A stretch of 32,366 nt of DNA from a virus. Lineage: Duplodnaviria > Caudoviricetes. This document shows, one piece after another, positions 1 to 25,695 of the stretch. The DNA lies in the IMG/VR virus record IMGVR_UViG_3300030333_004239, positions 1 to 32,366 of that record; one strand, given 5' to 3'. Positions within the stretch are counted from its first letter, which is position 1. Every line of letters begins with the position of its first letter. Under the pieces are notes generated by a model, which saw nothing but the letters and a program-made list of their open reading frames with translations, had not been told where the DNA came from and did not search any database. A program made the translations under genes and the position numbers.

Positions 1-1371
1 TATCTTGAAGCGGAACACTTCACAGACGCAACAAATCAGATGCTGTTTAAGTGTGTCAAAAAGTCTCTTCAGGATGTAAACAAGGTAGAGTTGTCATCAA
101 TTCTTTCTGCTGCTAATCAGCTTGGGTTTTATGAAAATATAAACAACCAAGAAGAGGTAGGTTTTCTCAGGTCTCTGTTCAACTTTCCAATACATAAAGA
201 AAATGTTGGATTCCACGCTGCGAAGCTGGCTAAGCTGCAAATTGCCAGAGATGTCAAAAAAACTCTAGCTGTTTGCTCAACTAGAATAGATAAGATAACT
301 GGCGATGAAGACATTAATGATATCATTTCGATTATAGAAACGCCCGTGCTGGATGCTACCGCCAAAATATACCAAAGGTCTGACAATAAACCAGAGGTTA
401 TTGGTAACGAAGTAGCCGACTATGTTGAGTTCTTATCTGAGAATAAGAGCGACATGCTTGGTATCAGCACAGGATTTCCAATTTATGACGAAGCGATAGG
501 CGGTGGTCTCCGTAGGAAGTGTGTCGATCTAATTGCCGCAAGACCAAAGGTTGGTAAGTCGATGTTTGGAGATGCCGTTGCTATGCACGTATCAAAAAAC
601 TTAGATATTCCCGTACTTGTACTAGATACAGAAATGTCTAAAGAAGACCATCTGAATAGGATGTTGGCAAATATCAGCGGTGTAGAGATAAATACAATAT
701 CAAGCGGTAAGTTCGCAGATAACGAACTCAATCTTGAAAAAGTTGAGATGGCAGCGAAGCAACTTGAAGAAATTCCTTACCACTATGTTAGTATCGCTGG
801 TCAGCCTTTTGAGAATATACTGAGCATTATGCGTAAGTGGATATATCAAGAGGTTGGATTTGACGAGACTGGCAGGACTAAAGATTGCTTAATAGTATAT
901 GATTATCTCAAGCTAATGAACTCTGATAGTATTTCTAATTCTATGCAAGAGTTTCAAGTCTTGGGCTTTCAAATAACACAGCTACATAATTTCTGTGTTA
1001 AATATGATGTCCCCTGTCTAAGCTTTGTACAGCTAAACAGGGATGGTATTACAAAGGAGTCAACAGACGTAGTTTCTGGGTCAGATAGGCTAATTTGGCT
1101 TTGTACTAGCTTCTCTATATTTAAGATGAAGTCAGATGAGGAAATTGCCGATGATGATGAAGACAATGGTAATAGAAAGTTAGTTCCTATTGTAGCTCGA
1201 CATGGTGCAGGATTGGACGATGGCGACTATATAAATATGAACATGTTTGGTAAGTTTGGTAAGTTGGTAGAGGGAGAGACTAGAAATGCTCTGAGAAAGA
1301 ACTCTACCGTTCGAGATAAAGGTTTTGTTTCCGAAGATGGAGAGCAACCAACAAATATTGAAGATCTCTAA
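1..1371 (+). CDS. dnaB: Replicative DNA helicase, DnaB family (5' end lies outside the window)
   Basis: Walker A AARPKVGKS, H1a LDTEMS, H2 VYDYLKLM, H3 FVQLNRDG. The frame is open from base 1 (YLEAEHFTDATNQMLF resembles the DnaB N-terminal domain), so ATG 40 is probably internal. Confidence 0.93.
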   Translation, partial: YLEAEHFTDATNQMLFKCVKKSLQDVNKVELSSILSAANQLGFYENINNQEEVGFLRSLFNFPIHKENVGFHAAKLAKLQIARDVKKTLAVCSTRIDKITGDEDINDIISIIETPVLDATAKIYQRSDNKPEVIGNEVADYVEFLSENKSDMLGISTGFPIYDEAIGGGLRRKCVDLIAARPKVGKSMFGDAVAMHVSKNLDIPVLVLDTEMSKEDHLNRMLANISGVEINTISSGKFADNELNLEKVEMAAKQLEEIPYHYVSIAGQPFENILSIMRKWIYQEVGFDETGRTKDCLIVYDYLKLMNSDSISNSMQEFQVLGFQITQLHNFCVKYDVPCLSFVQLNRDGITKESTDVVSGSDRLIWLCTSFSIFKMKSDEEIADDDEDNGNRKLVPIVARHGAGLDDGDYINMNMFGKFGKLVEGETRNALRKNSTVRDKGFVSEDGEQPTNIEDL

Positions 1372-2377
1372 TCAGCTATTCTCAAAGCTTCCTGAGCTAT
1401 TGAAATATCTTGAAATTGATTTCATTGAGTACCCTAATAGATATGCTTTCGCATGTCCAATTCATGGTGGAGACAACCCAGAGGGATGCTGCATTTTTCT
1501 AGATGGCAATAGCGTAAAAGGCAACTGGAACTGCTGGACAAATCACTGCGAATCTGATCACGGCAGGAACCTATTTGGATTTGTTAAGGGTGTCCTTGCA
1601 AATAAGGCTGACGGTAATCCTAATATATATGAGACCGTTAAGTTTTGCATGGATTTTCTAGGGTTAAGCGAGTCTGAGCTTAAGGACATCAAGAATGTAG
1701 ATTCCAACAATGATTTAAAGCTGCTTGAAATTTTTCACAGAGATCCAGAGAGGTCAACTCCTGCCATAGACAGAGATCTAATTTTACAGGAATTAAACAT
1801 ACCAGCTAGTTATTATATTAACAGAGGCTACAGTGAAGAGATTCTTGCAAAATTTGATGTAGGACTTTGTAGCAAAAAAAATAAGCCAATGTCTAACAGA
1901 GTTGTTGTCCCAATCTATGATGAGGGCTATAATTATATTGGATGTATAGGCCGGTCGGTCTACGAAAATATGAAACCTAAGTGGCTGCACAGCAGAGGGT
2001 TTAGAAAAAGCTCTTATCTGTACGGCCTAAATTTATCTAAGGACAAAATACTAGAAACAGGCACCGCATTTGTAGTTGAAGGGCAGGGAGATGTTTGGCG
2101 GTTGCATGAGGCAGGTATAGAAAATTGTGTCGGAATATTTGGCGCAAACATGAGCGATGACCAGTTAGTATTGCTAGAAAAAAGTGGCGCATTAAACTTG
2201 GTAGTCCTGACAGATTATGATGAAGCTGGACATAGAGCCGCTGAGCAGATAATGAAGAAATGCGGCAGGCGATTTAATTATCACAGACCAAACATATCGC
2301 AGAAAGATATTGGCGATATGACAGTAGAACAAATAAATAATGAAATACTTGAACAGTTAGAAGGAGTATTAGTATGA
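1337..2377 (+). CDS. dnaG: DNA primase, DnaG type (CHC2 zinc-binding domain + TOPRIM)
   Basis: CPIHGGDN...WNCWTNHC zinc domain; NRVVVPIYD...IGR; TOPRIM VVEGQGD and LTDYDEAG. ATG 1337 preferred over TTG 1325; overlaps the end of dnaB. Confidence 0.92.
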   Translation: MESNQQILKISNQLFSKLPELLKYLEIDFIEYPNRYAFACPIHGGDNPEGCCIFLDGNSVKGNWNCWTNHCESDHGRNLFGFVKGVLANKADGNPNIYETVKFCMDFLGLSESELKDIKNVDSNNDLKLLEIFHRDPERSTPAIDRDLILQELNIPASYYINRGYSEEILAKFDVGLCSKKNKPMSNRVVVPIYDEGYNYIGCIGRSVYENMKPKWLHSRGFRKSSYLYGLNLSKDKILETGTAFVVEGQGDVWRLHEAGIENCVGIFGANMSDDQLVLLEKSGALNLVVLTDYDEAGHRAAEQIMKKCGRRFNYHRPNISQKDIGDMTVEQINNEILEQLEGVLV

Positions 2378-3204
2378 CTAGAATCTTGGCGTTTGCTGGC
2401 AAAAAACAATCCGGCAAAAATTCATGTTGTTCATTCTTGCATGGATACCAAATGAGGTCTTATAATGTAATAGATGGTTTTGATCTTTCCGCAGATGGAC
2501 ACCTTGTTATAGATACGGTCTCTGTAGATGAAAACGGTGAGAAGAAAACCACAAAAGGCGCTCTTGATGTAACGCGCACCGACCTTGAGTTTGGCATGTG
2601 GGCGGCAGAGAGTATGTGGCCTTTTATTAAGCACTACTCTTTCGCATCATCTCTCAAAGAGATAGCTACTGGTCTTTTTGGATTAACAAAGCCACAGTGC
2701 TATGGTACAGATCTAGATAAGAACAGTCTAACTTGGATTAGGTGGGAAGACATGCCCGGCTATGAAGGCGAGAACGAAGGCAGGATGACAGCTAGAGAAT
2801 TTCTACAGCACTTTGGGACGGACATTTGTCGCAAGATTCATCCAGACATTTGGACTGATAGAACACTGAGAAACATTAGGGAAGAAGAGTCTTTATTTGC
2901 TGTTATCTCAGATTGCAGGTTTCCCAACGAGGCCGAAGCAGTTCAAAGAGCTGGTGGCAAAGTTATACGATTAACTAGGGGAGATGATTCAGATGACGCG
3001 CACTCTAGCGAGACAGAAGTTAACAATATAGAATACGACGCTGTGATTGATAATAAAGATCTTAGCCTTTTAGAAACGAACAAAGAAGTTATTTCTCTCT
3101 TAGAACAATGGGGTTGGTTGGGAGATGTGATACAACCCGTAGTACCGGAGCCAGTTGAGGACAAACCTGAACTTGTTGGCGGTATCAAGAAAATCAAGGA
3201 ATAA
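2374..3204 (+). CDS. Deoxynucleoside monophosphate kinase (T4 gp1-like)
   Basis: P-loop AGKKQSGKN; SFASSLKEI; TAREFLQHFGTDICR; VISDCRFPNE; HSSE. ATGA overlap with the primase gene. Confidence 0.88.
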   Translation: MTRILAFAGKKQSGKNSCCSFLHGYQMRSYNVIDGFDLSADGHLVIDTVSVDENGEKKTTKGALDVTRTDLEFGMWAAESMWPFIKHYSFASSLKEIATGLFGLTKPQCYGTDLDKNSLTWIRWEDMPGYEGENEGRMTAREFLQHFGTDICRKIHPDIWTDRTLRNIREEESLFAVISDCRFPNEAEAVQRAGGKVIRLTRGDDSDDAHSSETEVNNIEYDAVIDNKDLSLLETNKEVISLLEQWGWLGDVIQPVVPEPVEDKPELVGGIKKIKE

Positions 3205-3206
3205 AT

Positions 3207-4220
3207 ATGTTAGTTACATACATACGTAGCTCTAGTTACAACAATTTTGAGTATTGTCAAATGCAGTACTTTATGACCTATGTTTTAGGTCATCAGACCG
3301 TATCTGGCAAGAAAGCTCAGCTGGGAACTGTCGTCCATAAAGTTATGGAAGTTCTAGCCGGTTGTAAAAAGCTACACCAAGATAAGGCCGAGCTATTGCT
3401 TGAGGATGACGCTATCGGAGAGGTCGAGTTTACTAAACGTAGACTCGGAACAAAGAAATTTGTAAACGAAATCCTTAAGCGTAGCTACGACCATTACACA
3501 TCTAATTGCACTCACCATTACACTAATGCCGACTATAAGTTTTGTGATAAAACGACTTGGGAAGCGTTGACTTATGAAGATGGAATCTTTGATCCTCGCA
3601 ACAGAAATATCGTAGCTGCTGAACCACAATTTGATATTGCTATAGAAGAGGACTGGGCCAAATATGAGTACGATATGCCAGACGGAACTACCGTTGAGGG
3701 TCGGCTAGCTATTAAAGGTACTATTGACTTAGTGACCGAAGTTGATGACGGAGTTATCGAAGTTATCGACTGGAAGACGGGACGCAGACTTAACTGGGCT
3801 ACAGGAGAAGAGAAGACTTATGAGAAACTGTGTAAAGACCCGCAGTTAATGCTGTATCATTATGCAATTTCTAAACTTTTCCCTGAATATGAAGACGCGA
3901 TTATGTCGATATACTTCATTAGGGACGGTGGGCCGTTTAGTATTTGTTTTGAGGAAAGCGACAGGCAGAAGTTCTTGGGGATGCTGAAGGACAGGTTTGA
4001 AGAGATTAAGAAGACAACCAAGCCAAGACTGCTTTCTAGAAATCAATCTCACTGGAAATGCCAAAAGCTTTGTGACTTCTGCAAGAAAGACTGGCCCGGA
4101 ACTAATGAGAGTATGTGTAGACATGTGAGCAATCACTTGGAGCAGTTTGGTATGTTAGACACAATACAAGAATGCACAAGAGAAGGTTTTGATGTTGGGT
4201 ATTATGAGGCACCGGGATAA
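3207..4220 (+). CDS. PD-(D/E)XK exonuclease, Cas4/AddB/RecB-like, probable Fe-S cluster
   Basis: N-terminal SS..N.F..C; GTVVHKVME; E...GTIDLV...IDWKTG; QLMLY; C-terminal WKCQKLCDFC...C. Confidence 0.85.
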   Translation: MLVTYIRSSSYNNFEYCQMQYFMTYVLGHQTVSGKKAQLGTVVHKVMEVLAGCKKLHQDKAELLLEDDAIGEVEFTKRRLGTKKFVNEILKRSYDHYTSNCTHHYTNADYKFCDKTTWEALTYEDGIFDPRNRNIVAAEPQFDIAIEEDWAKYEYDMPDGTTVEGRLAIKGTIDLVTEVDDGVIEVIDWKTGRRLNWATGEEKTYEKLCKDPQLMLYHYAISKLFPEYEDAIMSIYFIRDGGPFSICFEESDRQKFLGMLKDRFEEIKKTTKPRLLSRNQSHWKCQKLCDFCKKDWPGTNESMCRHVSNHLEQFGMLDTIQECTREGFDVGYYEAPG

Positions 4221-4978
4221 TGGAACATTATTATGAAGGGTTACAGGGATTTTGGGGAGGACTCGATGCGTCTTTTTACAGCGAGATGGTGGAAAGATTC
4301 AACAGCGGCTCTCACTTTGTAGAGGTGGGTTCCTTCAAAGGTAAAAGCTCGTCATGTATGGCGGAACAGATTATTAGCAGTGGCAAAGATATAAGATTCG
4401 ACTGTGTTGACACATGGGCGGGCTCTCAAGAGCACCAGAGAGGAGGTATCGTAGAAGACAATAATGTGGTTGACGGTGATTTGTTTGAAGTGTTTTTAGA
4501 AAACACAAAACGGTTTTCAGATGTAATCAAGCCAGTCAGACTTCCGTCAAAAGAAGCCTCTATGCTCTACGATGAAGAGTCCCTCGATTTTGTTTTTATT
4601 GATGCTGCACACGATATGAGAAACGTTTTAGCAGACGTAGCTAGCTGGACTCCAAAGGTCAAGAAAGGTGGGATAATAGCCGGACATGATTACGGAGGTG
4701 GCTGGATAGGTGTTACCGACGCTGTTGATTTATATTTTAAAGATGTTTTACAAGTTGAGGTGCAGGTCTTTGAAAAATCTAGTTGCTGGTTTGTTGATAG
4801 AAGTTTTGATGTCCCCACCGGAAAGATTTTTGAAGATGGAATAGCGAGAAGATTGAAGGCTTGGGAGAACTCAGTCGATGGTCTGATTAAAATTAAAAGC
4901 ATAGAACAAATAAAAAAAGAAAAAGAGAAAACCAAAAGAGAAAGAGTAATTTTATGGAAGGCCGAGGATAATGATTGA
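4220..4978 (+). CDS. Class I SAM-dependent methyltransferase (Methyltransf_24-like)
   Basis: VEVGSFKGKSS; VDTWAGS; DFVFIDAAHD; VKKGGIIAGHDY. Confidence 0.88.
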   Translation: MEHYYEGLQGFWGGLDASFYSEMVERFNSGSHFVEVGSFKGKSSSCMAEQIISSGKDIRFDCVDTWAGSQEHQRGGIVEDNNVVDGDLFEVFLENTKRFSDVIKPVRLPSKEASMLYDEESLDFVFIDAAHDMRNVLADVASWTPKVKKGGIIAGHDYGGGWIGVTDAVDLYFKDVLQVEVQVFEKSSCWFVDRSFDVPTGKIFEDGIARRLKAWENSVDGLIKIKSIEQIKKEKEKTKRERVILWKAEDND

Positions 4979-5471
4979 AATAGAGATTACGGAAGAAATG
5001 AAGAAGCGCGCTTGGGCTAAGTCTAGAGAGATGGGTGTAATACGCAACTCCATCATGAAGGGCGGCGGAAATATCGCAGGTTTTTTAGGAGAAGAGGTTG
5101 CAAACGTAGTTATTGATGGTACAATTAATAACACATACGATTACGACATAGTTTCTAAGTCGGGCATCAAGTACGATGTTAAGACAAAGAGATGCACCTC
5201 AGAACCTAAACCGTTCTACGAGTGTTCAGTTGCTAATTTTAACACAAAGCAAAAATGCGACAGGTACGCATTTGTTAGGATTGAAAACAAGAACAAGCGA
5301 TGGGGTAGAGCTTGGGTCTTAGGATGGCTAGAGCATGATGAATATTTTGAAAAAGCCAAGAAGCTGACTAAAGGCCAGATAGACCCGTCTAATGGGTTCA
5401 TAGTTAGGGCTGACTGTTACAATGTTGCAATCTCAGACTTAAAAAGATTTAGACACAGAAAGACTACATAG
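4971..5471 (+). CDS. Phage protein with probable restriction-endonuclease-like PD-(D/E)XK fold
   Basis: Spacing GFLGEE...YDYDIV...YDVKTK...CDRYAFVRI fits the fold. Tightly packed in the operon. Confidence 0.55.
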   Translation: MIEIEITEEMKKRAWAKSREMGVIRNSIMKGGGNIAGFLGEEVANVVIDGTINNTYDYDIVSKSGIKYDVKTKRCTSEPKPFYECSVANFNTKQKCDRYAFVRIENKNKRWGRAWVLGWLEHDEYFEKAKKLTKGQIDPSNGFIVRADCYNVAISDLKRFRHRKTT

Positions 5472-5481
5472 GATTATTTAG

Positions 5482-7053
5482 ATGAGTTGGACTCCACTAA
5501 ATGTAAAAACTCACTTCAGTCTACAGCGAGGCTTCTCAAAGCCAGACAAGCTAGCTAAGAAGTGTAAAGAGTTTGGATACAAAGCGTGCGCAATCACTGA
5601 TATTAACACTATATCAGGGGCAGTTACATTCTACAAAGAGTGCAAGAAGAACGACATTAAGCCCATTATGGGATGTACTCTAGAGTTTGATAACGGCAAA
5701 AAGAAAACTGTTATCGCTAAGAATAAAGCTGGCTGGTATGCGCTGATTGACCTTGTTTCTAAGAAGAATATGTATGAAGATGATGTAGTGTATAAACTAA
5801 CGGAAGCTTCGCTTGATAAAAATCTTATCTGCATAGACGGATTGAAGCAATATTCTGCATACTACGTAGAAGAGAATGAAGCAGAGGTTCATAGGATACT
5901 TCTGTGTTCAGGCATGAAGACTACAATGTCTAAAGTCAAAGGTAAGCTCGACTCCTTCAAGCACTTGAAGCCCTTTTTCTCGTCAGACAAGTTTTACTTG
6001 CCGACTATAGAAGAGGTCAAGTCTAAGTACACTGACGAACAGATTGCTATGAGCAATGAAATAGCAGATCAGTGCGAGGAATACGACATTTTGGGTCAGC
6101 CAATGCTGCCTGAGTTCGACTGTCCAGAAGGATACACCGAAGACGAATATCTTAAGCAATTATGTAGAGATGGTTGGCGGATTTTACTCGCTGAAACTGG
6201 CAAGGTCGATGACGACCAAAAAAAGCAAGAGTATCTCGATAGAATCAAGAATGAGATGGACGTTATTTTTGACGCCAGACTGTCTGGTTATTTCCTAATC
6301 GTTCAGGATATTGTAAACTTTGTTAGGGAACAAGGCTGGTTGCCGGGGCCGGGAAGAGGCTCTGCTGCCGGATGTCTTATCTCCTACCTGATTGGTATCA
6401 CGGAGATTGATCCGATTGAATATGACCTAATTTTTGAGAGATTTTACAACGCTGGACGTAACACTGAAGATCATGTATCCCTACCTGATATCGACCTAGA
6501 TGTGCCAGCAGAAAAACGCGATGAAGTTATTGCCTATATCAAGACAAAATACGGCGAAGACAATGTATCACAGATGATTACCTTCAACAAACTACAGGGT
6601 CGCGCTGCTCTTAAGGAAGTCATGAGAATAAATAGCAATGTTTCTTTCTCTGAGATGAATGAACTTACTAAGAACATTCCCAATGAGGCAGATGTATCAG
6701 ACCTTTTAGAGCAAAGCGGCGAGAAGTCTTTAATCAGATGGACTCTATTGTATCAACCAGAAATTCTAGATAGATGGTGTAAAGTCAATAGTGAAGATGA
6801 CTTAATCGGGCCACTATCTTCTGTGTTTCAACAGGCTATGGATATTGAGGGTACTATAAAGTCTCAAGGCAAGCACGCCGCCGGAGTGATTATATCATCA
6901 AATAAATTAAATGAAGTGTGCCCAATGGTACAGGACAAAAACAACAACCTCGTCGCTGGTTTTGAAATGGGAGACCTTGAAGAGCAGGGGCACGTTAAAT
7001 TCGATATACTAGGTATTGACCTACTAAGTAAGATAATGGAGATAAAAGAATAA
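5482..7053 (+). CDS. dnaE: DNA polymerase III alpha subunit, N-terminal part (reduced PHP + palm/thumb)
   Basis: AITD, IKPIMG, YFLIVQDIV, GPGRGSAAGCLISYLIGITEIDP, LIFERFYN, PDIDLD, GKHAAGVII, VKFDILG. Stops 12 residues after KFDILG. Confidence 0.95.
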   Translation: MSWTPLNVKTHFSLQRGFSKPDKLAKKCKEFGYKACAITDINTISGAVTFYKECKKNDIKPIMGCTLEFDNGKKKTVIAKNKAGWYALIDLVSKKNMYEDDVVYKLTEASLDKNLICIDGLKQYSAYYVEENEAEVHRILLCSGMKTTMSKVKGKLDSFKHLKPFFSSDKFYLPTIEEVKSKYTDEQIAMSNEIADQCEEYDILGQPMLPEFDCPEGYTEDEYLKQLCRDGWRILLAETGKVDDDQKKQEYLDRIKNEMDVIFDARLSGYFLIVQDIVNFVREQGWLPGPGRGSAAGCLISYLIGITEIDPIEYDLIFERFYNAGRNTEDHVSLPDIDLDVPAEKRDEVIAYIKTKYGEDNVSQMITFNKLQGRAALKEVMRINSNVSFSEMNELTKNIPNEADVSDLLEQSGEKSLIRWTLLYQPEILDRWCKVNSEDDLIGPLSSVFQQAMDIEGTIKSQGKHAAGVIISSNKLNEVCPMVQDKNNNLVAGFEMGDLEEQGHVKFDILGIDLLSKIMEIKE

Positions 7054-7268
7054 TGGATATCAAAAAGGATTACAAATCAGTCATCTTTTCTGGATGCGCG
7101 ATTGAGTACAAGGATATTAGTTTATGCAATTTAGGAAGCTATATTCCATCAAGAAATGGGATGTCTCGTACTTATCAAGTACACTCTAAGAGGTTAAAGT
7201 TTAGCAAAATTTATAAGAGTATCGACGATGCTGTTGATATGTTCATAGAACTAAAAAGGAAAGCGTAA
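7053..7268 (+). CDS. Hypothetical 71-aa basic protein between the dnaE halves
   Basis: TAATG overlaps at both ends (7051-7055 and 7266-7270); exactly fills the gap. Confidence 0.7.
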   Translation: MDIKKDYKSVIFSGCAIEYKDISLCNLGSYIPSRNGMSRTYQVHSKRLKFSKIYKSIDDAVDMFIELKRKA

Positions 7269-7957
7269 TGAATTATAGAGATATTATTGTTTTTGACTTT
7301 GAAACAGGGTCTAGAAACCCACATAAGACGCAACCTACCCAGATTGCGGCAATAGCTCTTCATGGCAGACGATTAACGTTGCAGCCCGGCGGAGTATTCA
7401 ATAGTGAAATCAGACCCATTCTCGACGATAAGAAGGCTATTGAGGCAGGATTCGATCCTATCGAAGACGAGGCGCTTCAAATCACTGGGAAGAACCGCAA
7501 GGACTTAGCAAAAGCACCGTCACCAAAAAGTGTTTGGCAAAAGTTTGAGGATTTCTGCAACAAGTTCAACTTTAGAGGAACCTCTTATACGGCTCCGATT
7601 GCAGCAGGCTATAACATCATTGGCTTTGACCTGCCAATCGTCCAAAGGATGTGTGACATGTACGGCACGACTGACTCTAGAGGGAGACAGACTGTATTTA
7701 ATCCAATTTTTAAGTTAGACCTAATGGATATGGTATTCTCTTGGACTGAGAACAATAAAGACTTCAAGAGCCTTAGTATGGACTTCCTTAGAGAGTATAT
7801 GGGTTTTCCTGAAGAGAGCAAACAGAACGCTCACGATGCCCTACAGGACGTTAAGGACACGGCTAACATATTGATTAAGTTCTTAAAGTTCCAACGTAAT
7901 ATTTCAGAAAAGACTAAGTTTGAGAAAGCATTTGCAAATGGCGAATTCTACGTTTAA
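7268..7957 (+). CDS. DEDDh 3'-5' exonuclease, DnaQ/epsilon-like
   Basis: ExoI VFDFETG, ExoII AGYNIIGFD, ExoIII AHDALQD. Confidence 0.92.
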   Translation: MNYRDIIVFDFETGSRNPHKTQPTQIAAIALHGRRLTLQPGGVFNSEIRPILDDKKAIEAGFDPIEDEALQITGKNRKDLAKAPSPKSVWQKFEDFCNKFNFRGTSYTAPIAAGYNIIGFDLPIVQRMCDMYGTTDSRGRQTVFNPIFKLDLMDMVFSWTENNKDFKSLSMDFLREYMGFPEESKQNAHDALQDVKDTANILIKFLKFQRNISEKTKFEKAFANGEFYV

Positions 7958-9497
7958 TATTGACAACTTTAATGATGATAAAACTTGGGATCTAATCTGT
8001 GAAGGATATACCAAAGGAGTCTTCCAGTTAGAATCTCAGCTCGGTAGATCTTGGGCAAAAAGAGTACGCCCAAGAAATATTGAAGAGCTAGCTGCATTAA
8101 TTTCGCTTATTCGTCCCGGCTGTTTGAAAGCTTTTACCGAAGGCAAATCTATGACGCAGCACTATGTTGATCGTAAAGCGGGCATTGATGAGGTAAAGTA
8201 TCTGCATGATAGCCTTGAGCCAATTCTGAAAGAGACATTTGGGGTTCTTGTATACCAAGAGCAATCTATGAAGATAGCTCAACAGCTTGCTGACTTTGAT
8301 CTCAAAGAAGCCGACAATTTACGAAAGGCTATTGGCAAGAAAAAAGCTGGGCTTATGGCTGAAATCAAGGGCTCCTTTGTGCAGGGGGCTATTAACAAAG
8401 GTATTGATGAAGAGACATCAGAAGAAATATTTGGATGGATTGAGAAGTCGAACAGATACGCATTTAATAAGTCACACGCTGTTTCATATGCCGTCAACGC
8501 ATACAGAAGCGCCTACTGCAAAGTTCATCGACGGGTTAGGTTTTTTGAATCTTATCTTAATCACGCCCAGAGAAAGCCAGATCCTCAACAGGAGATCAAG
8601 GAACTAGTATCTGATGCTAAGCTATACGACATAGAGGTATTACCTCCTAGAGTTGGCCATTTCTACACAGACTTTACTGCTAATGGGGACAAGATATATT
8701 TTGGTATCACAAACGTAAAGGGTGTTGGTACTGCTGAGTCTAGGAAGATGCTTGATTTAATCCCTCAAATAGAGAAGAGGCTCGGCAAAGACTTCTCAGA
8801 TTTTACTTGGCTAGATACGCTTTTAACGCTAGGCTTCAAAGTAAACAAGACATGCATGGAATCCCTAATAAGTGTTGGCGCTTTTAATGGTAAAAAGAAC
8901 CGTATGCATAGAAATGAGATGATGTATGAATATAAAAGCTATAGGAGTCTTTCACAGAGGGAGCGAGAGTGGCTAAGCGAAAACTATAACTCAGATGATA
9001 CGCTAATTTATGCTATAGATAATATGATAAACAACCTTAAGATAAACTCCAATAGGCTTATTAAGGTGTTTGATATTAGAAATATGATTGATTCACCTCC
9101 ATACGACCTTACAGATCATGAGACTTGGATAGCTGACACAGAAAAGAAATACATGGGAACTTCCCTTACATTTTCAAAGACTGACGGCATACAAAGCTCT
9201 CTGGTAAATTGCACCTGCAAAGAGATTATCAATGGCAGAACTGGCAAAGTTAATGTTGCTGTTCATATTAATTCTTTACGGGAGTATGTTACTAAAAATG
9301 GTAAAAATCCCGGTCAAACAATGGCTTTTCTAAGCGTAGAAGACTCTAGCGCGACTCTAGACTCAGCGGTTATGTTTCCCGATGCATACGATGAGTTCAA
9401 AGGTATCATGTATGAGGGCAACACAGTACTATTGTTTGGGCAAGTTTCTAAGAAAAAAGATACAAGTTTGATAATTAACAAAGTGTCTGAAGTCTAG
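7938..9497 (+). CDS. dnaE: DNA polymerase III alpha subunit, C-terminal part (fingers, HhH, OB fold)
   Basis: DDKTWDLI...GVFQLES, LAALISLIRPG, ETFGVLVYQEQ, ADNLRKAIGKKK, YAFNKSHAVSYA, ITNVKGVG, MAFLSVEDS OB fold. ATG 7938 preferred over TTG 7920; overlaps the exonuclease by 20 nt. Confidence 0.95.
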   Translation: MANSTFNIDNFNDDKTWDLICEGYTKGVFQLESQLGRSWAKRVRPRNIEELAALISLIRPGCLKAFTEGKSMTQHYVDRKAGIDEVKYLHDSLEPILKETFGVLVYQEQSMKIAQQLADFDLKEADNLRKAIGKKKAGLMAEIKGSFVQGAINKGIDEETSEEIFGWIEKSNRYAFNKSHAVSYAVNAYRSAYCKVHRRVRFFESYLNHAQRKPDPQQEIKELVSDAKLYDIEVLPPRVGHFYTDFTANGDKIYFGITNVKGVGTAESRKMLDLIPQIEKRLGKDFSDFTWLDTLLTLGFKVNKTCMESLISVGAFNGKKNRMHRNEMMYEYKSYRSLSQREREWLSENYNSDDTLIYAIDNMINNLKINSNRLIKVFDIRNMIDSPPYDLTDHETWIADTEKKYMGTSLTFSKTDGIQSSLVNCTCKEIINGRTGKVNVAVHINSLREYVTKNGKNPGQTMAFLSVEDSSATLDSAVMFPDAYDEFKGIMYEGNTVLLFGQVSKKKDTSLIINKVSEV

Positions 9498-9502
9498 CAT
9501 AA

Positions 9503-9511
9503 TGCTATAAT
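9503..9511 (+). promoter_or_regulatory. Extended -10 sigma70-type promoter candidate (TGcTATAAT) upstream of ssb
   Basis: Exact TGnTATAAT in the only sizeable intergenic gap of the + strand run (9498-9543); AGGAG ribosome-binding site at 9534-9538; no clear -35. Confidence 0.6.
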
Positions 9512-9543
9512 CTCTTATAGTATGAAATTTGATAGGAGATTAA

Positions 9544-9873
9544 ATGAATAATTGTACTTTAATAGGAAGGTTCGTAGCCGATCCAGTTATAAGAGATGTT
9601 GGTAAAACAAAGCTTGTTACCTTTTCTTTGGCCATCGAAGAGTACAGAAAAGACAAAGACGGAAACAAAAAGAAGAGAGTTGACTTTTTTGACTTTGAGG
9701 CTTGGGATAGCGGAGCAGAAACAATAAACGAGTTCTGTGGTAAGGGTGATATTGTAGCTGTAAACTGTTCTGCTCGCCAGCAGAAGTGGACTAACTCAAA
9801 TGATGAACATAGACAGAAGGTAGTTTTCCGTGTCCAAAATTTTAGAATATTCTCAGGCAGAGAAAATGTCTAG
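9544..9873 (+). CDS. ssb: Single-stranded DNA-binding protein, OB fold only
   Basis: MNNCTLIGRFVADP, FSLAI, DFFDFEAW...AE, KGDIVAV. No acidic C-terminal tail. Confidence 0.9.
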   Translation: MNNCTLIGRFVADPVIRDVGKTKLVTFSLAIEEYRKDKDGNKKKRVDFFDFEAWDSGAETINEFCGKGDIVAVNCSARQQKWTNSNDEHRQKVVFRVQNFRIFSGRENV

Positions 9874-10345
9874 TATAGAAGCTCAGATAGATGACAACAT
9901 AGATATTATTATATATCTCATCACCGAGTTCAATAACACTACAGATACATATGACTTTGAAGACCTGCTTCAGGTAGGTTTTCTAGGCATGTTAAAAGCC
10001 ATAAACAAATTCGACGAGAACAAGGGAGAGTTGAGAGACTATATCTTCTGCTCCGTTAGAAACTCTCTCATAAAGTTCTTGAAGAAAGAACTGCAGTGGA
10101 AAGAGAATGTAAAGCTAGAGCCGAATATTTCTCCTGACTGGAATGACAACTACGAAACCATTGAATTCGACAATATCTTAAAGGCTTATTCTGGCAAGCT
10201 TATTCCACTTGAAAGCAAAATATTAGAGCTTAGATTTAGAGGTATGACCAGAAGGCAGATATGCGAAGAAACTGCCTTAACAAAGAATGAATACTACACT
10301 TTTCTCTATTCAGCAATAGGAAAGATAAAAAGGTATGAGACGTAA
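9866..10345 (+). CDS. Small sigma70-family RNA polymerase sigma factor (regions 2 and 4)
   Basis: FEDLLQVGFLGMLKAINKFDENKG (region 2); LESKILELRFRGMTRRQICEE (region 4-like HTH). ATG 9866 preferred over GTG 9830. Confidence 0.85.
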   Translation: MSSIEAQIDDNIDIIIYLITEFNNTTDTYDFEDLLQVGFLGMLKAINKFDENKGELRDYIFCSVRNSLIKFLKKELQWKENVKLEPNISPDWNDNYETIEFDNILKAYSGKLIPLESKILELRFRGMTRRQICEETALTKNEYYTFLYSAIGKIKRYET

Positions 10346-11984
10346 AAAAATTCTTTTCTGTTCAGAGGGGCATTTCCTGCCCACTGGCTATTCTGTATAT
10401 ACTAATCAGATTTTATCTAGACTAGCCGCTGACCCTAGATTTGAAGTCGCAGAGCTTGCCTGTTACACAGACACTGAAGCGGCGGCAAAGCATCAAAAGG
10501 ACTGGTTGATATTTCCTAATCAGCCACCCAAAAACGCCGAGGACTGGGAATTCTACAAAAGCAATCCATCTTACGAGTTTGGAGACTATACTTTTAACCA
10601 TGTATTGCTTGAGTTCATGCCAGATTTTGTCATGGATATTAGAGACTGGTGGATGTTTGAATTTCAACAGAGGTCTCCGTTTAGAGACTTATTTAATTGG
10701 TGCATAATGCCAACCGTAGACGCAAGCCCACAAAATGTACAGTGGATGGATACCTTCTCTACAGCGGACGCTGTGTTTGCGTACTCTGAATTTGGTAGAG
10801 ATGTTATGATGAAGCAGTCCAAATCTTTGAATTTCGTAGACCTAGCGCCTCCTTGCGCAAGCCAAGAGTTTTTTCCGGTGAGCAACAAGGAGCTACATAG
10901 AGACCGTCTAGGCATAGATCCTTCCTGCTTTATATTTGGGACAGTAATGAGAAACCAAAGGCGTAAGCTTTATCCAGACCTGTTCAAAACATTTAGGCAA
11001 TTTTTAGATGTTACCAAAGCGAACAATGCATATCTCTACTGCCATACATCTTATCCCGACATTGGCTGGCAAATACCCGAATTGCTACAAGAATACGGCT
11101 TGACTAACAGAGTCCTGTTTACCTATAAATGCAAAAACTGTGGCGATCTAAGGGCATCTTTTTTTGATGATGTTATTTCTCACTGTTATAACTGTGGCAC
11201 TTTCAAAAGGGAGCTAGTTGGTATAAACAATCAGCTTGATCGTCAAGAACTAGCACAGATTTACAATCTATTTGATGTATACGTTCAGTATGCTAATTCC
11301 GAGGGCTTTGGCATGCCTCAGCTGGAAGCAGCACAGTGTGGTCTTCCAGTAGTGACAGTGGATTATTCTGCCATGCAGTCTGTAGCAAACAATATAGGCG
11401 CTATAAAGATACCGCCATTGTCCATGTATACTGAATGTGAAACTGGATGCGAAAGAGCAATACCTAATAATGATAGTTTATTGGTAAATATGTGCGAGCT
11501 TTATAGTAAGCCTATAGAAAAACTAAGACAAATGGGATTTGCTACAAGACAAAAGACAAGAGAGAATTATAATTGGGACAAGACTGCAAAAGTCTGGGCT
11601 GACTATTTTGACAAAACGCCAGTTAGGGATCATCGTGAAACTTGGTTATCTGAACCCAAAATTTTAGAACCGCTTGCTACATCAGTCCCAGATGGGTTAA
11701 CGATCAAAGAACAGGTTGATTTTATATTCAAAAATATTTATAGAAGACCAGAACTTATTGGCAGCTATCTGTGGCGTAGAACAATAAAAGACATCACTTA
11801 TAAGTGCACTGCCAACAATACTAATGTTGACTTCTATTTCAATGAATCACACGTAAATAACAATGTTCGTAATTGGCGACCGTTCAACGTAGAAGATGCT
11901 TGTGAGCTAATGCTTGGCATGAGAAAAATTATAAATGACTGGGAAAAGGCCAGAGGAGATAAGTTAAGGAGCATGTCAACATGA
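10335..11984 (+). CDS. GT4 (GT-B) glycosyltransferase with inserted CxxC...CxxC zinc ribbon
   Basis: PTGYS; VMRNQRRKLYPDL; EGFGMPQLEA (EX7E); CKNC...CYNC insertion. Confidence 0.9.
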   Translation: MRRKKILFCSEGHFLPTGYSVYTNQILSRLAADPRFEVAELACYTDTEAAAKHQKDWLIFPNQPPKNAEDWEFYKSNPSYEFGDYTFNHVLLEFMPDFVMDIRDWWMFEFQQRSPFRDLFNWCIMPTVDASPQNVQWMDTFSTADAVFAYSEFGRDVMMKQSKSLNFVDLAPPCASQEFFPVSNKELHRDRLGIDPSCFIFGTVMRNQRRKLYPDLFKTFRQFLDVTKANNAYLYCHTSYPDIGWQIPELLQEYGLTNRVLFTYKCKNCGDLRASFFDDVISHCYNCGTFKRELVGINNQLDRQELAQIYNLFDVYVQYANSEGFGMPQLEAAQCGLPVVTVDYSAMQSVANNIGAIKIPPLSMYTECETGCERAIPNNDSLLVNMCELYSKPIEKLRQMGFATRQKTRENYNWDKTAKVWADYFDKTPVRDHRETWLSEPKILEPLATSVPDGLTIKEQVDFIFKNIYRRPELIGSYLWRRTIKDITYKCTANNTNVDFYFNESHVNNNVRNWRPFNVEDACELMLGMRKIINDWEKARGDKLRSMST

Positions 11985-13087
11985 AAATACTTTACATAGG
12001 AAACTATAATGACGGCACAGGCTGGGGTAACGCAGCGCTCAATAATATCTTAGCATTAGATTCTGCAGGAGTAAATGTTGTCCCTAGAGCAATAACCTTT
12101 AACAATTCTAACAACACCACAAACCAAAGAATTAAACAGCTTGAAGCGCAGAGCGAGCGCGGCTGTGATGTATGCATTCAGCATACGCTTCCAAATCTAT
12201 ATCACTGTAACACCTCTATAAAAAACATAGGTATATTCTACACAGAGACAAGCACTTTTTCCGAGAGTATGTGGCCTAAATATATTAACTTGATGGATGA
12301 AGCTTGGGTGGCTAATTCCCAAATGGTAAGAGCCTCGATTGCTAGCGGAGTAAAAATCCCGACTAAGGTATGTCCTCTGCCGATACATCTGGAGGATTAT
12401 GAAAATGTAGAAGACTGCGCCTCTATCGGGGAGTTTGATGGATGCTTCAACTTTTGTTTTGTCGGTGAATTTGTTAAAAGAAAAAATATAGAAGCTCTTC
12501 TGAGGGCTTATCACACAGAGTTTCACCCATCTGAACCAGTGAATCTATTTCTTAAACTCTCCATGCCGGGAGTTGACTCCAACAGCACTCTAGAGCAATT
12601 TGACAACTTTGCCTCAACAGTGAAGGCGGGCTTAAAAATCAGAAAGAAGTACAGAAAAGAAGTCGCTATCACGGGGATGCTTGAGAAAAAACATCTGATT
12701 TCTCTCATGAGCAAATGCGACTGCTTCGTAATGCCTAGCTTTGGCGAGGCTTGGTGTATACCAGCTTTAGAAGCTATGGCTTTGGGACTACCTGTAATTC
12801 ACACGCAAGGCACGGGCATGGATGACTTTTGTGTTGGTTGGCCCGTACAGTCAAAATCAACTAGATGTTACCTTGCTAATGACTCACTACAAGACGTTTA
12901 TACTTCCCTTACATCTTGGAAAGAAGTCGATGTTGAATCATTGGCCTCGACTATGAGGATTGCATACGAGACATATAAAAACGACAAGCAAGAGTGGCAA
13001 AAGATGAAGGCTTTAGCTAAAGAGACATCCCAAAACTACACGATAAGAAAGATAGGACAAGCAATGAAGGAGCTTTTAAATGGCTAG
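11981..13087 (+). CDS. GT4 glycosyltransferase
   Basis: TGWGNAA; FVGEFVKRKNIEALL; DCFVMPSFGEAWCIPALEAMALGLPVI. Confidence 0.92.
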   Translation: MKILYIGNYNDGTGWGNAALNNILALDSAGVNVVPRAITFNNSNNTTNQRIKQLEAQSERGCDVCIQHTLPNLYHCNTSIKNIGIFYTETSTFSESMWPKYINLMDEAWVANSQMVRASIASGVKIPTKVCPLPIHLEDYENVEDCASIGEFDGCFNFCFVGEFVKRKNIEALLRAYHTEFHPSEPVNLFLKLSMPGVDSNSTLEQFDNFASTVKAGLKIRKKYRKEVAITGMLEKKHLISLMSKCDCFVMPSFGEAWCIPALEAMALGLPVIHTQGTGMDDFCVGWPVQSKSTRCYLANDSLQDVYTSLTSWKEVDVESLASTMRIAYETYKNDKQEWQKMKALAKETSQNYTIRKIGQAMKELLNG

Positions 13088-14102
13088 CAGAGCTTCACAA
13101 CAGTCAATTAGATCCATAATTAGAAGATCAACATTGTCGCCTAGTGATAAACTTAATATACTCACCTTTTGTACCCACGAAAGATACGAACAGAACTTGT
13201 GTCGTACTGGGCATAACTTTTATTCCATAAATCACGGCAAGACTTGGAACAAAGATTTTGGTAAAATACCGGAAAACTACCAAGAGGGCGATGTTGCGCC
13301 TTGGCATGTAAACTTTGATTTAATATTATGTCATACTAGCTGTGAAAGAGTTTCATTGGCAAAGCAGTTACAGGCTTTATTTAATATTCCGATACTAAGA
13401 CACACGCATGTCCTTCCTGATATCAGGTATGATGTCCCTCAGCAGGTTGATGGATTTAACTCAATACCAGTGGAGCATAACAGCTTTATCTCTACATATA
13501 ATATGAAACAGTGGGGCAACCACAAGAACCAGAATACATCCGTTATAGAGCATGGTATAGATGTTGATTTCTGGGATAGCGGCGATAACCCAGAAAGAGA
13601 AAATGTCTTACTATCTGTAGTCAATCAGTGGCCAGATAGAGACTGGTGTTGTGGCTGGAATCTATGGCGAGAAACTGTCAACTTTTCTTCTCCGTCTCAA
13701 ATGCCTATAAGGGTTCTCGGAGATAGTCCGGGACTTTCTAAACCGGCAGAAAGCATTGAAGCGTTAAGACATGCGTACAAAAGCTCGTCTATATTCCTGA
13801 ACACATCAATACACTCTCCAGTGCCGACAGTCCTTATGGAGGCAATGGCCTCTGGATGCGCAGTAGTCAGCACAAACAACTGTATGATCCCAGAAATAAT
13901 CCAGCATGGCGAGAACGGTTTGCTTGCGGACACCGCAGATGAACTACGCGCATCTTGCCAGTATCTCCTAGACAACCCATCTAAAGCTAGAGAGTTAGGT
14001 GAGGCGGCAAAGAGGACAATGCAGGAAAAGTTTAATCTACAAAGATTTGTTGATAACTGGAATACTCTATTTTTTAATGTTATAGATAATTATAGGAAAT
14101 AA
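13080..14102 (+). CDS. GT4-like glycosyltransferase
   Basis: IEHGIDVDFW; FLNTSIHSPVPTVLMEAMASGCAVVST; IIQHGENGLL. Confidence 0.9.
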   Translation: MASRASQQSIRSIIRRSTLSPSDKLNILTFCTHERYEQNLCRTGHNFYSINHGKTWNKDFGKIPENYQEGDVAPWHVNFDLILCHTSCERVSLAKQLQALFNIPILRHTHVLPDIRYDVPQQVDGFNSIPVEHNSFISTYNMKQWGNHKNQNTSVIEHGIDVDFWDSGDNPERENVLLSVVNQWPDRDWCCGWNLWRETVNFSSPSQMPIRVLGDSPGLSKPAESIEALRHAYKSSSIFLNTSIHSPVPTVLMEAMASGCAVVSTNNCMIPEIIQHGENGLLADTADELRASCQYLLDNPSKARELGEAAKRTMQEKFNLQRFVDNWNTLFFNVIDNYRK

Positions 14103-14103
14103 A

Positions 14104-14541
14104 ATGAAGGTAATAATATCACACAAAAATCCGCAACAGGATAGTCATACATGGATACAAGATATATCAAGCCTAGATATTCTCGTAGATGACGCAGAAG
14201 CTACGGAAATAATAGTAGACTGCACGCTGTGTACGTTTGACTATAATAACATTGGGCCAATCTTGGGTAAAATAGTTTCTAAACTAAGACTTCAAGGAAA
14301 AGTTGTTGTATACGAAAAAGATATTGATATGATTTGTCACAACTACAACAAGTCTGGGATGAACATACAAGATCTGAACAACCTCGTCTTTGAAGAAACA
14401 CCGGCGGTAGCATGTCTGCTGAATACAGAAGTAATTTCTGACTTGCTAAAGCAGGCGGGTCTTACAATAGAAGAGAAATTCATAAACAATGACACTATGC
14501 AATCAATAGTAATTGCAAGGAGAGATAAAAATGCAGCCTGA
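14104..14541 (+). CDS. Hypothetical protein, degenerate class I methyltransferase-like fold
   Basis: DDAEATEIIV...IVSKLRLQGKVVVYEKD resembles the C-terminal 'RVLKPGG' half of Methyltransf_11; no glycine-rich SAM motif I. Confidence 0.45.
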   Translation: MKVIISHKNPQQDSHTWIQDISSLDILVDDAEATEIIVDCTLCTFDYNNIGPILGKIVSKLRLQGKVVVYEKDIDMICHNYNKSGMNIQDLNNLVFEETPAVACLLNTEVISDLLKQAGLTIEEKFINNDTMQSIVIARRDKNAA

Positions 14542-15355
14542 GTATCAAGTTGAAACATGGTGTAAGAATTGCCTATTTGCAGAATACACAGACAATACGC
14601 AAACGGGATGCAAATTAGGTAGACATAAGATTTTTAATCCCGAAGAAAATACAAAAGAAGAAGACGGAGTACATGCTTATGTCTTTGATAGGTTCTGTAC
14701 GGCTTTTCGTCCAGAAGAGTGGAAGTTGGTTTTGGACGACGAAGAAAAGAAGGACTTAGTAGCGACCGTAAAGTCTGAAATATTTCCGCCTTTAGGAATT
14801 TTCATGTTTCTAAAAACTACAGTCCCTAACCCCTTAGCAAATCTTAAAAACAGAATACAAGAGATAAAAGATCAGACGGCTGGCAGGCTAAGGTACATTG
14901 TTGTTATAAATGATAAGGTCGAATATAATGAACAGGTACATAGTATACTTCATGACTCATTTGATTTCGAGGTAACTGAGTTCCACATAGTACAAACTCT
15001 AACGCAGCAGAGAAATTTGCTGTTTATAGACGACGCATTTAAACATGCAAAGAATGGGTGGATATATGTAACCGAATCAAACCGGAAGATTAGAAAAGAT
15101 CTCTTCGAGGCTATTGATAATAACATAAATGTTAAGCTTAATAGAGTCGTTCTTGTTGAACCATCAGACGGTATTCAGGGAATGATTTTTCAAGCCGCTG
15201 TACATAAATTTCTTGACGGCAGCAATAGTCCAATAGATCCTGAAACAGGAGAAAAGGTAAGGATAGACTTCATTCAAAAGGTCAAAGCTCTTGCCGAAAA
15301 AGGTGAAGAAAAGACAGTGTTTACGCAGGAGGAGTTTTTCAATGACGCTTCCTAG
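14531..15355 (+). CDS. Hypothetical protein: N-terminal Cys cluster plus possibly degenerate GT-A domain
   Basis: CKNC...C...C at the N-terminus; YIVVIND and AFKHAKNGWIYVTES resemble GT2 strands without DXD. ATG 14531 preferred over TTG 14513. Confidence 0.5.
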   Translation: MQPEYQVETWCKNCLFAEYTDNTQTGCKLGRHKIFNPEENTKEEDGVHAYVFDRFCTAFRPEEWKLVLDDEEKKDLVATVKSEIFPPLGIFMFLKTTVPNPLANLKNRIQEIKDQTAGRLRYIVVINDKVEYNEQVHSILHDSFDFEVTEFHIVQTLTQQRNLLFIDDAFKHAKNGWIYVTESNRKIRKDLFEAIDNNINVKLNRVVLVEPSDGIQGMIFQAAVHKFLDGSNSPIDPETGEKVRIDFIQKVKALAEKGEEKTVFTQEEFFNDAS

Positions 15356-16181
15356 AGTGGCTGTTATAATTTCTAATTATAACTATGGTGATTTTGTTAT
15401 TGACGCTATAGATAGTGCCTTAAGTCAGGATTATGAAGGTGAGATTCGCGTTTATGTTCTAGATGACGGCTCATCTGATGGATCGTGGGATAAAATTTCC
15501 TCTTATGCTGCAGAAGATATTTCATCAATAACAGATAAGCACGAAGTAAACGAACCGTATTATAAAGGTTCTATGGAATCATTTAAATGTAGTGACTTAG
15601 GTTTATGGTGCTATCGCATCGAGAACTCAGGGGCGAGCACCGCTAGGAATGTAGCCATGTGGGAGGCTTGGAGCTGGGCAGATTACTTTGCGATTCTTGA
15701 TGCTGATGATATGTATCATCCCTCGAAAGTACGCAAGCATGTAGATGCCCTTCTCAAATATGAGGAAGTTGGCGTTAGTTACTCAGATTATATTGTACAT
15801 AAAACACACTACGGAAACGTTGACTACAAGAAATATGAATATAAGTATCCATATTCAATAAAAGAACTTCATCACCATTGTATTGTTCATAGCGCCGGAG
15901 TAATAAAGAAAAGACATTTAGAGAGAATAATACTAGACAACAAAGAATTTTATGATAGTGCATTACATGGCCCGGCATCAAAGGGCTTTATAGGATGCAC
16001 GGAAGATTATGATCTTTGGATTAGATTAGGAGATGTCTGCATGATTAACCACATAGCAGAGCCTTTATCTTTTGTTAGAGAGACAGGGCAAAACCAATCT
16101 ATGAAGATGGATCAAAATACTTTTATAAACAATATGCAGAAGATTAAGAGCAGGCATGAGCAGATTCATACAAAAAATTAA
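15342..16181 (+). CDS. GT2 glycosyltransferase
   Basis: VAVIISNYNY; VLDDGSSDGS; GASTARN; ILDADD; TEDYDLWIRL. AGGAGG upstream of ATG 15342. Confidence 0.92.
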   Translation: MTLPRVAVIISNYNYGDFVIDAIDSALSQDYEGEIRVYVLDDGSSDGSWDKISSYAAEDISSITDKHEVNEPYYKGSMESFKCSDLGLWCYRIENSGASTARNVAMWEAWSWADYFAILDADDMYHPSKVRKHVDALLKYEEVGVSYSDYIVHKTHYGNVDYKKYEYKYPYSIKELHHHCIVHSAGVIKKRHLERIILDNKEFYDSALHGPASKGFIGCTEDYDLWIRLGDVCMINHIAEPLSFVRETGQNQSMKMDQNTFINNMQKIKSRHEQIHTKN

Positions 16182-16869
16182 AAGAGGTTCCCTCACGACA
16201 GGAGTAGCTCTCTTATCTGCTGGACTTGGCAATCGGATTAGATCTAATGAACCACGTTCGCTAATAAAGATAGGAGGGAAGTGCCTCCTTGACCTACAAA
16301 TAGAAGCTCTGTCGTCAATGTTTTCAGAGCCAAACATTTTGGTTGGAATTGGTGTGGAATCTCAGAAGATAATAAAAAAGTTTACCGGGCGTGTTCGTCT
16401 TATTGAAAATCAGTTGTACAAAACTACAGGCCCGTTTGAAACTCTTAGGCTGCTCGTAAACTCCTCTACAGACGATAGCTTACTCATTATACATGGAGAT
16501 TTATATTTCAACTCTAACATACTTGATAGTGCAGACTTTTCTAAGTCTTTTATTGTGTCTGATACAACCGGCAGTATCTTAGAGAGAGAAGTTGGTATAA
16601 CATCCGTTAACAATAAAGCTAGTATACTATCCTATGGATTAAAAGATAAATGGGCTCAGATAGCCTTTTTGACAGGCAAAGAGTTAGCTATTCTCAGAAA
16701 CCTTTGCTGCAAATCAAATGATGACTCAAAGCACCTGCTGACTTTTGAGATAATAAACTCAATAATCAACAAAGGCGGCTCTTTTAAGGTGCATAAACCC
16801 GACAAAACATTTATAGTTGAAATAGATTGCATGAAGGACATAAAGAATGAAAATTTTAATATCAAGTGA
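16156..16869 (+). CDS. NTP transferase family protein (LicC/sugar-phosphate nucleotidyltransferase-like)
   Basis: LLSAGLGNRIRSNEPRSLIKIGG; IIHGDLYF; VEIDCMKD. Confidence 0.8.
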   Translation: MSRFIQKIKRGSLTTGVALLSAGLGNRIRSNEPRSLIKIGGKCLLDLQIEALSSMFSEPNILVGIGVESQKIIKKFTGRVRLIENQLYKTTGPFETLRLLVNSSTDDSLLIIHGDLYFNSNILDSADFSKSFIVSDTTGSILEREVGITSVNNKASILSYGLKDKWAQIAFLTGKELAILRNLCCKSNDDSKHLLTFEIINSIINKGGSFKVHKPDKTFIVEIDCMKDIKNENFNIK

Positions 16870-24958: not shown

Positions 24959-24960
24959 GA

Positions 24961-25677: not shown

Positions 25678-25695
25678 TAATCTAAGGAACTGAAT

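Follow-up and report, generated by a model that had tools for sequence, protein, structure and literature searches.

The window analysed here is a 32-kb virus record of marine origin (IMG/VR IMGVR_UViG_3300030333_004239; 32,366 nt, the whole stretch), in which the family C DNA polymerase DnaE is encoded as two separate open reading frames (ORFs), alpha-N and alpha-C, with a 71-aa ORF and a DEDDh exonuclease gene between them. Both halves are real, intact and under strong selection, and the arrangement is a real and conserved one that has probably not been described before. Comparative sequence data make it quite likely that the polymerase is a non-covalent two-chain DnaE replicase with the DEDDh exonuclease as its proofreader: the phage would encode DnaE as two proteins that bind each other non-covalently to form the replicative polymerase, and the exonuclease would act as proofreader of the alpha-N/alpha-C pair. 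The active site of DnaE needs residues of both palm and fingers, as in the E. coli and Taq structures, and therefore the halves would have to meet in trans. The split probably arose once, near the base of an aquatic phage family, in a form that already had the exonuclease gene between the halves; re-fusion probably reversed it at least twice, leaving the exonuclease gene just upstream. The initial annotation had proposed a non-covalent replicase of three to four subunits. The selected, intein-less split, its likely non-covalent nature and the likely proofreader stand, whereas the microprotein as a subunit and a stoichiometry set by coupling do not.

The two halves and the break between them

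Pfam families follow one another in order over both ORFs, with PHP and DNA_pol3_alpha on alpha-N and finger, HHH_6 and a weak OB on alpha-C, the OB match (PF01336) being below the Pfam cut-off (E 9e-4). Alpha-N ends in KFDILGIDLLSKIMEIKE, followed by the stop codon at 7051-7053, and alpha-C starts with the ATG at 7938. The junctions are, in order, TAATG (alpha-N/71-aa ORF), TAATG (71-aa ORF/exonuclease) and a 20-nt overlap (exonuclease/alpha-C). ORF calls, Pfam and alignments thus agree with the initial annotation that DnaE consists of two intact ORFs with all three catalytic aspartates in the N part, and the ORF calls likewise contain the two intervening genes and the junctions that it described. 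D336, D338, D508 and the GRGS motif are invariant in 60 of 60 split N halves, R129, K130 and YxFNKSH in 57 of 57 split C halves, and YAFNKSH is unbroken in alpha-C of the window.

DnaE is cut between the last palm helix and the fingers: in alignments with PDB structures, residue 516 of alpha-N corresponds to E. coli 563 and residue 12 of alpha-C to E. coli 592. Only a linker had been thought lost relative to E. coli; as a refinement, no residues are missing at the break relative to continuous phage forms. From KFD to the GVFQ glycine the window has 44 residues, compared with 42-52 in continuous phage forms; in bacterial-type proteins this length is 49-50 in 125 of 129 parsed. In a confident model of the continuous relative P0001 (predicted local distance difference test, pLDDT, 89), the break site corresponds to a coil that links the first fingers helix to the helix following the last palm strand. 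The chain break would thus sit in a loop, and it is probably left unsealed.

Pooled ratios of nonsynonymous to synonymous substitution (dN/dS; Table 1) were obtained from 7, 6 and 9 unsaturated pairs of 22 for alpha-N, alpha-C and the exonuclease, respectively, the last being the most constrained gene of the four-ORF block. At about 0.03 for both halves, a test set beforehand, selection is not relaxed. Pairwise identities of alpha-N and alpha-C correlate (r 0.87, 56 representatives). The alpha-N stop is bridged by contigs in all four DNA runs examined, which come from 4 studies, and the exonuclease/alpha-C overlap by contigs in two of the four; no alpha-N-to-alpha-C joint occurs in the contigs of these runs. 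A mis-assembly, the other doubt raised initially, is countered by this bridging in independent DNA runs and by a layout common to 135 other contigs. One contig of the DNA run X8 skips 7025-7278 (depth 2.4, 28-nt side) and was taken as a relative without the microprotein, or as noise. Five near-complete relatives (145-169 kb, 94-100% complete) have one DnaE each, which is split in four, and Pfam profiles found no PolA, PolB or beta clamp in any of the five.

Table 1. Features of the polymerase block and its flanking genes in the window
Feature	Position	Strand	Family match and other evidence	dN/dS
Upstream replication genes: DnaB helicase, DnaG-type primase, deoxynucleoside monophosphate (dNMP) kinase, PD-(D/E)XK nuclease	40..4220	+	Pfam and PHROG	
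Conserved 166-aa protein, no family match	4971..5471	+	No Pfam or PHROG match	0.049
DnaE alpha-N, 523 aa: shortened PHP without metal ligands, palm and thumb, catalytic D336, D338, D508	5482..7053	+	PF02811, PF07733	0.036
71-aa microprotein, unnamed phage family, lineage-specific real gene	7053..7268	+	No Pfam or PHROG match; model pLDDT 88	0.136
DnaQ-like DEDDh 3'-5' exonuclease (229 aa), probably the proofreader; C-terminal tail short and conserved, with a KF-x-K-x-F-type motif at its end	7268..7957	+	PF00929 (RNase_T), phrog_192	0.022
DnaE alpha-C, 519 aa: fingers, HhH, OB fold; chain ends at OB fold	7938..9497	+	PF17657, PF14579, weak PF01336	0.032
Single-stranded DNA binding protein (SSB), directly after alpha-C	9544..9873	+	PF00436; same place in most relatives	

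Split and continuous forms in the phage family

A scan of IMG/VR with alpha-C confirmed 217 relatives, and a second one, built from continuous proteins and run over one third of the collection, confirmed 577. The best 80 of each were kept, and removal of shared contigs left 139 distinct viral contigs. All of the best 80 of the 217 alpha-C relatives (42-100% identity) are split at the break site of the window. Among the 139 contigs, 135 are split at the same break, three are continuous and one has alpha-N alone in view, and every one of the 135 split contigs has the exonuclease in the gap; the search for the same break and gene order proposed in the initial annotation was therefore positive. 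A further 76 loci, partly on the same contigs, comprise 50 split ones, 22 with one half in view and four continuous ones, of which L250 is a family member and the other three are about 30%-identical bacterial-type proteins. Besides, ten intein-bearing proteins (41-54% identity), whose gene context was not seen, also stop just past the KxD motif and were taken as probable N halves. The closest match in cultured phages is about 30-31% identical.

The gap measures 627 to 6782 nt, exceeding 1 kb in 40 of the 135 contigs, and its cargo in relatives includes sugar enzymes, HNH/endonuclease VII genes, uracil-DNA glycosylase and aldehyde dehydrogenase. For instance, the halves in L146 (1759-10651) stand 6.8 kb apart, separated by about nine genes, two of which are for aldehyde dehydrogenase and a class III aminotransferase. 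In L040 (7604-8005), L058 (5673-6035), L061 (7625-8005), L024 (7303-7998) and L051 (7283-7999), additional genes separate the exonuclease from alpha-C. These encode endonuclease VII, an FkbM methyltransferase or a protein of unknown kind; they start in the overlap frame of the window alpha-C, and the alpha-C genes behind them have a new start. An obligate frameshift fusion of exonuclease and alpha-C was rejected because whole genes sit at that junction in several relatives.

Among long proteins, the closest are the continuous DnaEs P0001-P0003 (59-61% identity), of which P0002 is encoded at locus L250, and 40 of the top 50 are continuous at the break site; P0001 and P0034 have no continuous counterpart in IMG/VR. 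In trees of 104 and 116 representatives, to which 22 bacterial-type outgroups belong, the phage proteins group in one clade, and continuous forms stand among split forms in two places (C half) or four (N half), with three and five changes of state needed, respectively. Approximately unbiased (AU) tests (LG+G4, quick search, on 40 of 104 and 44 of 116 representatives) reject both a single split clade (p 3e-8 and 5e-5) and a single continuous clade (p 2.6e-4). The continuous phage forms carry the junction letters of the split family, namely K at KxD+11 in 23 of 23 and W before GxTxG in 20 of 23, a position where bacterial-type proteins have V or I in 136 of 149 and W in 1 of 149. Their linkers are uneven, at the 42-52 residues given above, in contrast with the nearly constant bacterial-type length, and P0001 and P0002 share a derived, decayed PHP with the clade of the window. 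By these sequence features the continuous phage relatives look like re-fusions. One fission with later re-fusions is the simplest history and the probable one; otherwise the same loop would have had to break at least four times, each time with an exonuclease moved into the gap. Recombination across the junction could move either state. The initial annotation had named continuous close relatives together with relaxed selection as counter-evidence. Continuous relatives do exist at 59-61% identity, but selection is not relaxed and they are nested in split lineages.

Proofreader, microprotein and the state of the two chains

The exonuclease residues D10, E12, D121, H189 and D194 (D-x-E, D, H-x4-D) are invariant in 56 of 56 sequences. 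The best PDB match is the PolC exonuclease domain 2p1j, the likeness to solved DnaQ-family proteins being distant. The PHP of the window has N7, K9, R16, I41 and T66 at the ligand positions and no DxH motif, the ligands (HxH...D, TDH, E, DxH) being lost, and it is about 100 aa shorter than in basal relatives with intact ligands. No TDH motif occurs among 42 short-PHP representatives (39 parsed), while HxH..D and TDH are kept in 17 of 18 long split N halves. Since the ligands are lost and short-PHP forms have no TDH, the exonuclease is the sole evident proofreader in the clade of the window. An inactive PHP beside a separate DEDDh exonuclease is a combination shared with E. coli. The exonuclease tail (7915-7957) has two spaced phenylalanines, with F222 in 97% of 62 sequences, and is placed roughly like the clamp-binding motif of E. 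coli epsilon; by this analogy it could be a clamp- or polymerase-binding motif. In all four continuous family loci with context (L081, L082, L083, L250), the exonuclease gene either directly precedes dnaE or is one gene removed from it on the upstream side, and the microprotein is absent. Six exonuclease ORFs that looked short proved to be intact, starting at ATC or ATT behind a strong Shine-Dalgarno sequence (L095:8828, L097:4802, L106:8829, L120:7519, L126:8794, L066:7337). Such a start may lower or regulate the level of the proofreader.

Several points weigh against a proofread two-chain replicase that was split once. The exonuclease also persists where the PHP ligands are intact, as in 17 of 18 long-PHP split lineages, so it cannot simply be standing in for a lost PHP. 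The tail with which E. coli epsilon binds alpha is longer than the tail seen here. No source of processivity is evident, there being no beta clamp in the five genomes and no QxxLF motif. The four RNA runs, with region shares of 0.05-0.13, gave no N-to-C joint, but they were available as contigs only and the test is weak because no RNA contig spans the whole gap. With respect to history, four independent fissions on the resolved C-half tree cost four steps against three for one fission and two fusions, the root inside the phage clade shifted between trees, and the direction of change is less sure than the interconversion itself.

In one other reading, the halves form a replicase while the exonuclease is a separate nuclease, for host DNA breakdown or primer and repair processing, whose gene only rides in the operon. 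Its retention where PHP ligands are intact, its distant likeness to solved relatives and a 26%-identical homologue in Bacteroides phage DAC16, where no DnaE lies within the 11 genes checked around it, would fit. However, wherever gene context is available in the family, for split and continuous forms alike, the exonuclease adjoins dnaE, it is the most constrained gene of the block, and the lack of TDH in short-PHP forms leaves no other proofreader evident, which together render the separate nuclease unlikely.

The microprotein is central to a second alternative, an obligate four-subunit replicase in which it is theta-like and coupling gives 1:1:1:1. Its family comprises 210 clusters at 50% identity, and the model has mixed helix and strand, with four strands. 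Foldseek against PDB and viral models gave no match at E<=0.001, the best viral row being a 71-aa protein without a name (E 0.04), and the ESM Atlas yielded viral clusters alone, all of them unnamed and under 0.9. Theta is a helical protein, and a theta (HolE)-like identity has neither a Pfam match nor a Foldseek PDB match at E<=0.001 behind it, the model having strands. The 71-aa family is present in the gap of 96 of 135 contigs, an unrelated 59-66-aa Cys-Cys protein in 18, and neither in 21; the two small-protein families do not look homologous. In favour of the four-subunit proposal, the microprotein is under purifying selection, it is single-copy and at the gap in the two near-complete genomes that have one, and a second small protein takes the same slot elsewhere. 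It is absent, however, from the other three of the five genomes, and 13 contigs have the start of the exonuclease no more than 26 nt from the alpha-N stop; therefore the microprotein cannot be an obligate subunit. Coupling has no better standing: 30 of 33 operon junctions overlap or lie within 3 nt, which makes overlaps the rule in this operon, whereas 40 of 135 gaps hold more than 1 kb with unrelated genes and six exonucleases have ATC or ATT starts. An obligate four-subunit replicase is thus quite unlikely and may hold only in the clade of the window. The proposals of the initial annotation that the microprotein is a general subunit and that special coupling sets the stoichiometry were not upheld. 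Translational coupling probably helps expression, yet it is no special feature. The microprotein is likely a dispensable, lineage-specific neighbour of the two-chain polymerase, and it may have an accessory role in the clade of the window. One clade (L053, L055, L059, L063, L065, L067-L074, L076-L078, L080) combines the 59-66-aa Cys-Cys gap protein with an alpha-C leader bearing a conserved CGC motif, and the cysteines of the two might share a metal.

A single DnaE chain could also result if the halves were joined by unrecognised RNA splicing, ribosome bypass or protein ligation. With no residues missing at the break (44 vs 42-52), joining would yield a normal protein, and the RNA coverage is thin. 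One RNA contig covers 7030-7699 unspliced, which was not counted as a bridge because it reaches only 23 nt ahead of the alpha-N stop. No joint was found in four RNA or four DNA runs, however, and Rfam over 5000-10000 gave no match at E<=1. The alpha-N tails after KxD vary from 18 to 41 residues and the C halves have variable N-terminal leaders, and the cargo of the 0.6 to 6.8 kb gap (sugar enzymes, endonucleases, glycosylase, aldehyde dehydrogenase) is unrelated and unlike an intron. Consistent with the earlier observation of an intact YAFNKSH and no intein ends, no Pfam intein family matches the DnaE halves or the exonuclease of the window, and no Hint-domain halves stand at the facing ends. 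As a positive control, split-intein ends are plain in relatives fractured between RG and S (L083, L324) or between FNK and SH (L300, L308). Joining of the halves into one chain is hence very improbable. The split-intein fractures lie at L308:4998-10477, L324:2669-8200, L300:274-1188 and L083:6992-11712, and the intein halves of L083 flank an ORF for a TnsA-like endonuclease. In L308 and L324/L325 DnaE is therefore in three pieces, with an intein at one junction only and the other junction intein-less.

The idea that the split is a decaying pseudogene or an assembly error, to which continuous relatives at 59-61% identity lend something, is practically excluded, being refuted by the independent bridging contigs, the dN/dS of about 0.03 and the same break and layout in 135 contigs, with the split DnaE being the sole polymerase found in near-complete genomes.

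A further-reaching version of the two-chain polymerase holds that the split is functional, a palm half and a fingers/HhH/OB half closing around DNA as a clamp-independent, subunit-exchangeable family C replicase that is ancestral in a large aquatic phage family and repeatedly re-fused. It is put forward because there is no clamp gene, clamp motif or tau domain. A QxxLF-type beta-clamp motif occurs in 0 of 61 C halves compared with 13 of 22 bacterial-type proteins, in a motif scan that is blind to non-canonical forms, and alpha-C has no C-terminal tau-binding region, the chain stopping at the OB fold. This version is tentative and rather doubtful.

Comparison with known systems and gene context

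No description of a full-length intein-less split DnaE with a nested exonuclease was found in the main texts of the open-access literature. The accessible portions of Timinskas 2014 (PMC3919608), Kazlauskas 2011 (PMC3201878), Benler 2021 (PMC8008677) and Al-Shayeb 2020 (PMC7162821) mention no such split. Single-chain DnaE/Pol III alpha (E. coli 2hnh/5fku, Taq 2hpi/3e0d, M. tuberculosis 5lew) shares the domain order PHP-palm-thumb-fingers-HhH-OB and the catalytic motifs, whereas the phage form has two chains, nothing past the OB fold and no QxxLF. The best matches in cultured phages, about 30% identical, include Gordonia phage RedWattleHog gp79 and Mycobacterium phage JayJay gp211, both continuous.

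According to the accessible text, the cyanobacterial split DnaE and other 'fractured genes' also have dnaE in two genes with genes between them, but these are religated by split inteins at other sites, the fractured genes having a homing endonuclease as well, and the cyanobacterial break was termed irreversible there (Dassa et al., 2009, PMC2677866). The window has no intein ends, and its relatives carry such fractures, between RG and S and between FNK and SH, in addition. In the B family, the intein-less split gp43A/gp43B of Aeromonas phages 25 and 44RR co-purify and are active, as summarised in a review (Edgell et al., 2010, PMC2988022), and PhiKZ gp82/gp50 form a 1:1 complex by cryoEM (Basu et al., 2026, preprint, PMC13648687). 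As far as these sources were accessible, they describe the same working principle, a replicative polymerase in two co-purifying, active polypeptides, with an unrelated fold, the exonuclease as a polymerase domain, no proofreader gene at the break and no re-fusion. Because the two-chain principle is known from these phage polymerases, the surprise is limited. For group 2.2 jumbo phages, too, the accessible text predicts a family C catalytic module made of two proteins and lacking an intein (Iyer et al., 2021, PMC7824862). That form is a minimal core cut within the catalytic domain, encoded by distant genes beside a family B replicase and without other Pol III domains. In contrast, DnaE of the window has full-length domains, its break lies behind the palm, and no second polymerase was found, PolB being absent from the five genomes.

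Unless an intein rejoins the pieces, family C replicases are regarded as single chains; here a full-length two-chain DnaE persists throughout a phage family that is widespread. Split and continuous forms interconvert, and natural near-twins (60% identity, same gene neighbourhood) allow direct comparison. How palm and fingers assemble, what fission costs and how replication proceeds with no clamp evident become directly testable, and the phages provide a natural two-part polymerase. Such halves are easily filed as fragments or pseudogenes.

The 14 runs holding at least half of the words of the region were all marine or seawater metagenomes. The + strand of the window is a single tightly packed gene run in the order DnaB, primase, dNMP kinase, PD-(D/E)XK nuclease, methyltransferase, 166-aa unknown, alpha-N, 71-aa ORF, exonuclease, alpha-C, SSB, sigma factor and glycosyltransferase cluster. 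Promoter and terminator scans of 5300-9700 stayed at chance level (9 vs 10.3 and 4 vs 2.7, respectively). The 166-aa protein travels with the polymerase block, lies in the gap between the halves in five relatives and stands directly ahead of the exonuclease in continuous relatives.

A GTDB scan (7 of 64 parts; 80 loci) gave L157 as the sole family member, a 4.3-kb contig in a Dehalococcoidia bin, which was rejected as a host indication. A 75%-identical relative (L242:5049-14551, G001) has four DUF1501 genes, with NrdA/NrdB, PhoH, RecA, ClpP and Hsp20 nearby. Its DUF1501 genes may hint at a Planctomycetota or Verrucomicrobiota host. In addition, about 16 kb of the window after the replication genes (10335-26466) encode glycosyltransferases and nucleotide-sugar enzymes (GT1, GT2, GT10, GT25, GT47-like, DegT, epimerase, FkbM), and the first of these, a 549-aa glycosyltransferase, is syntenic in most relatives.

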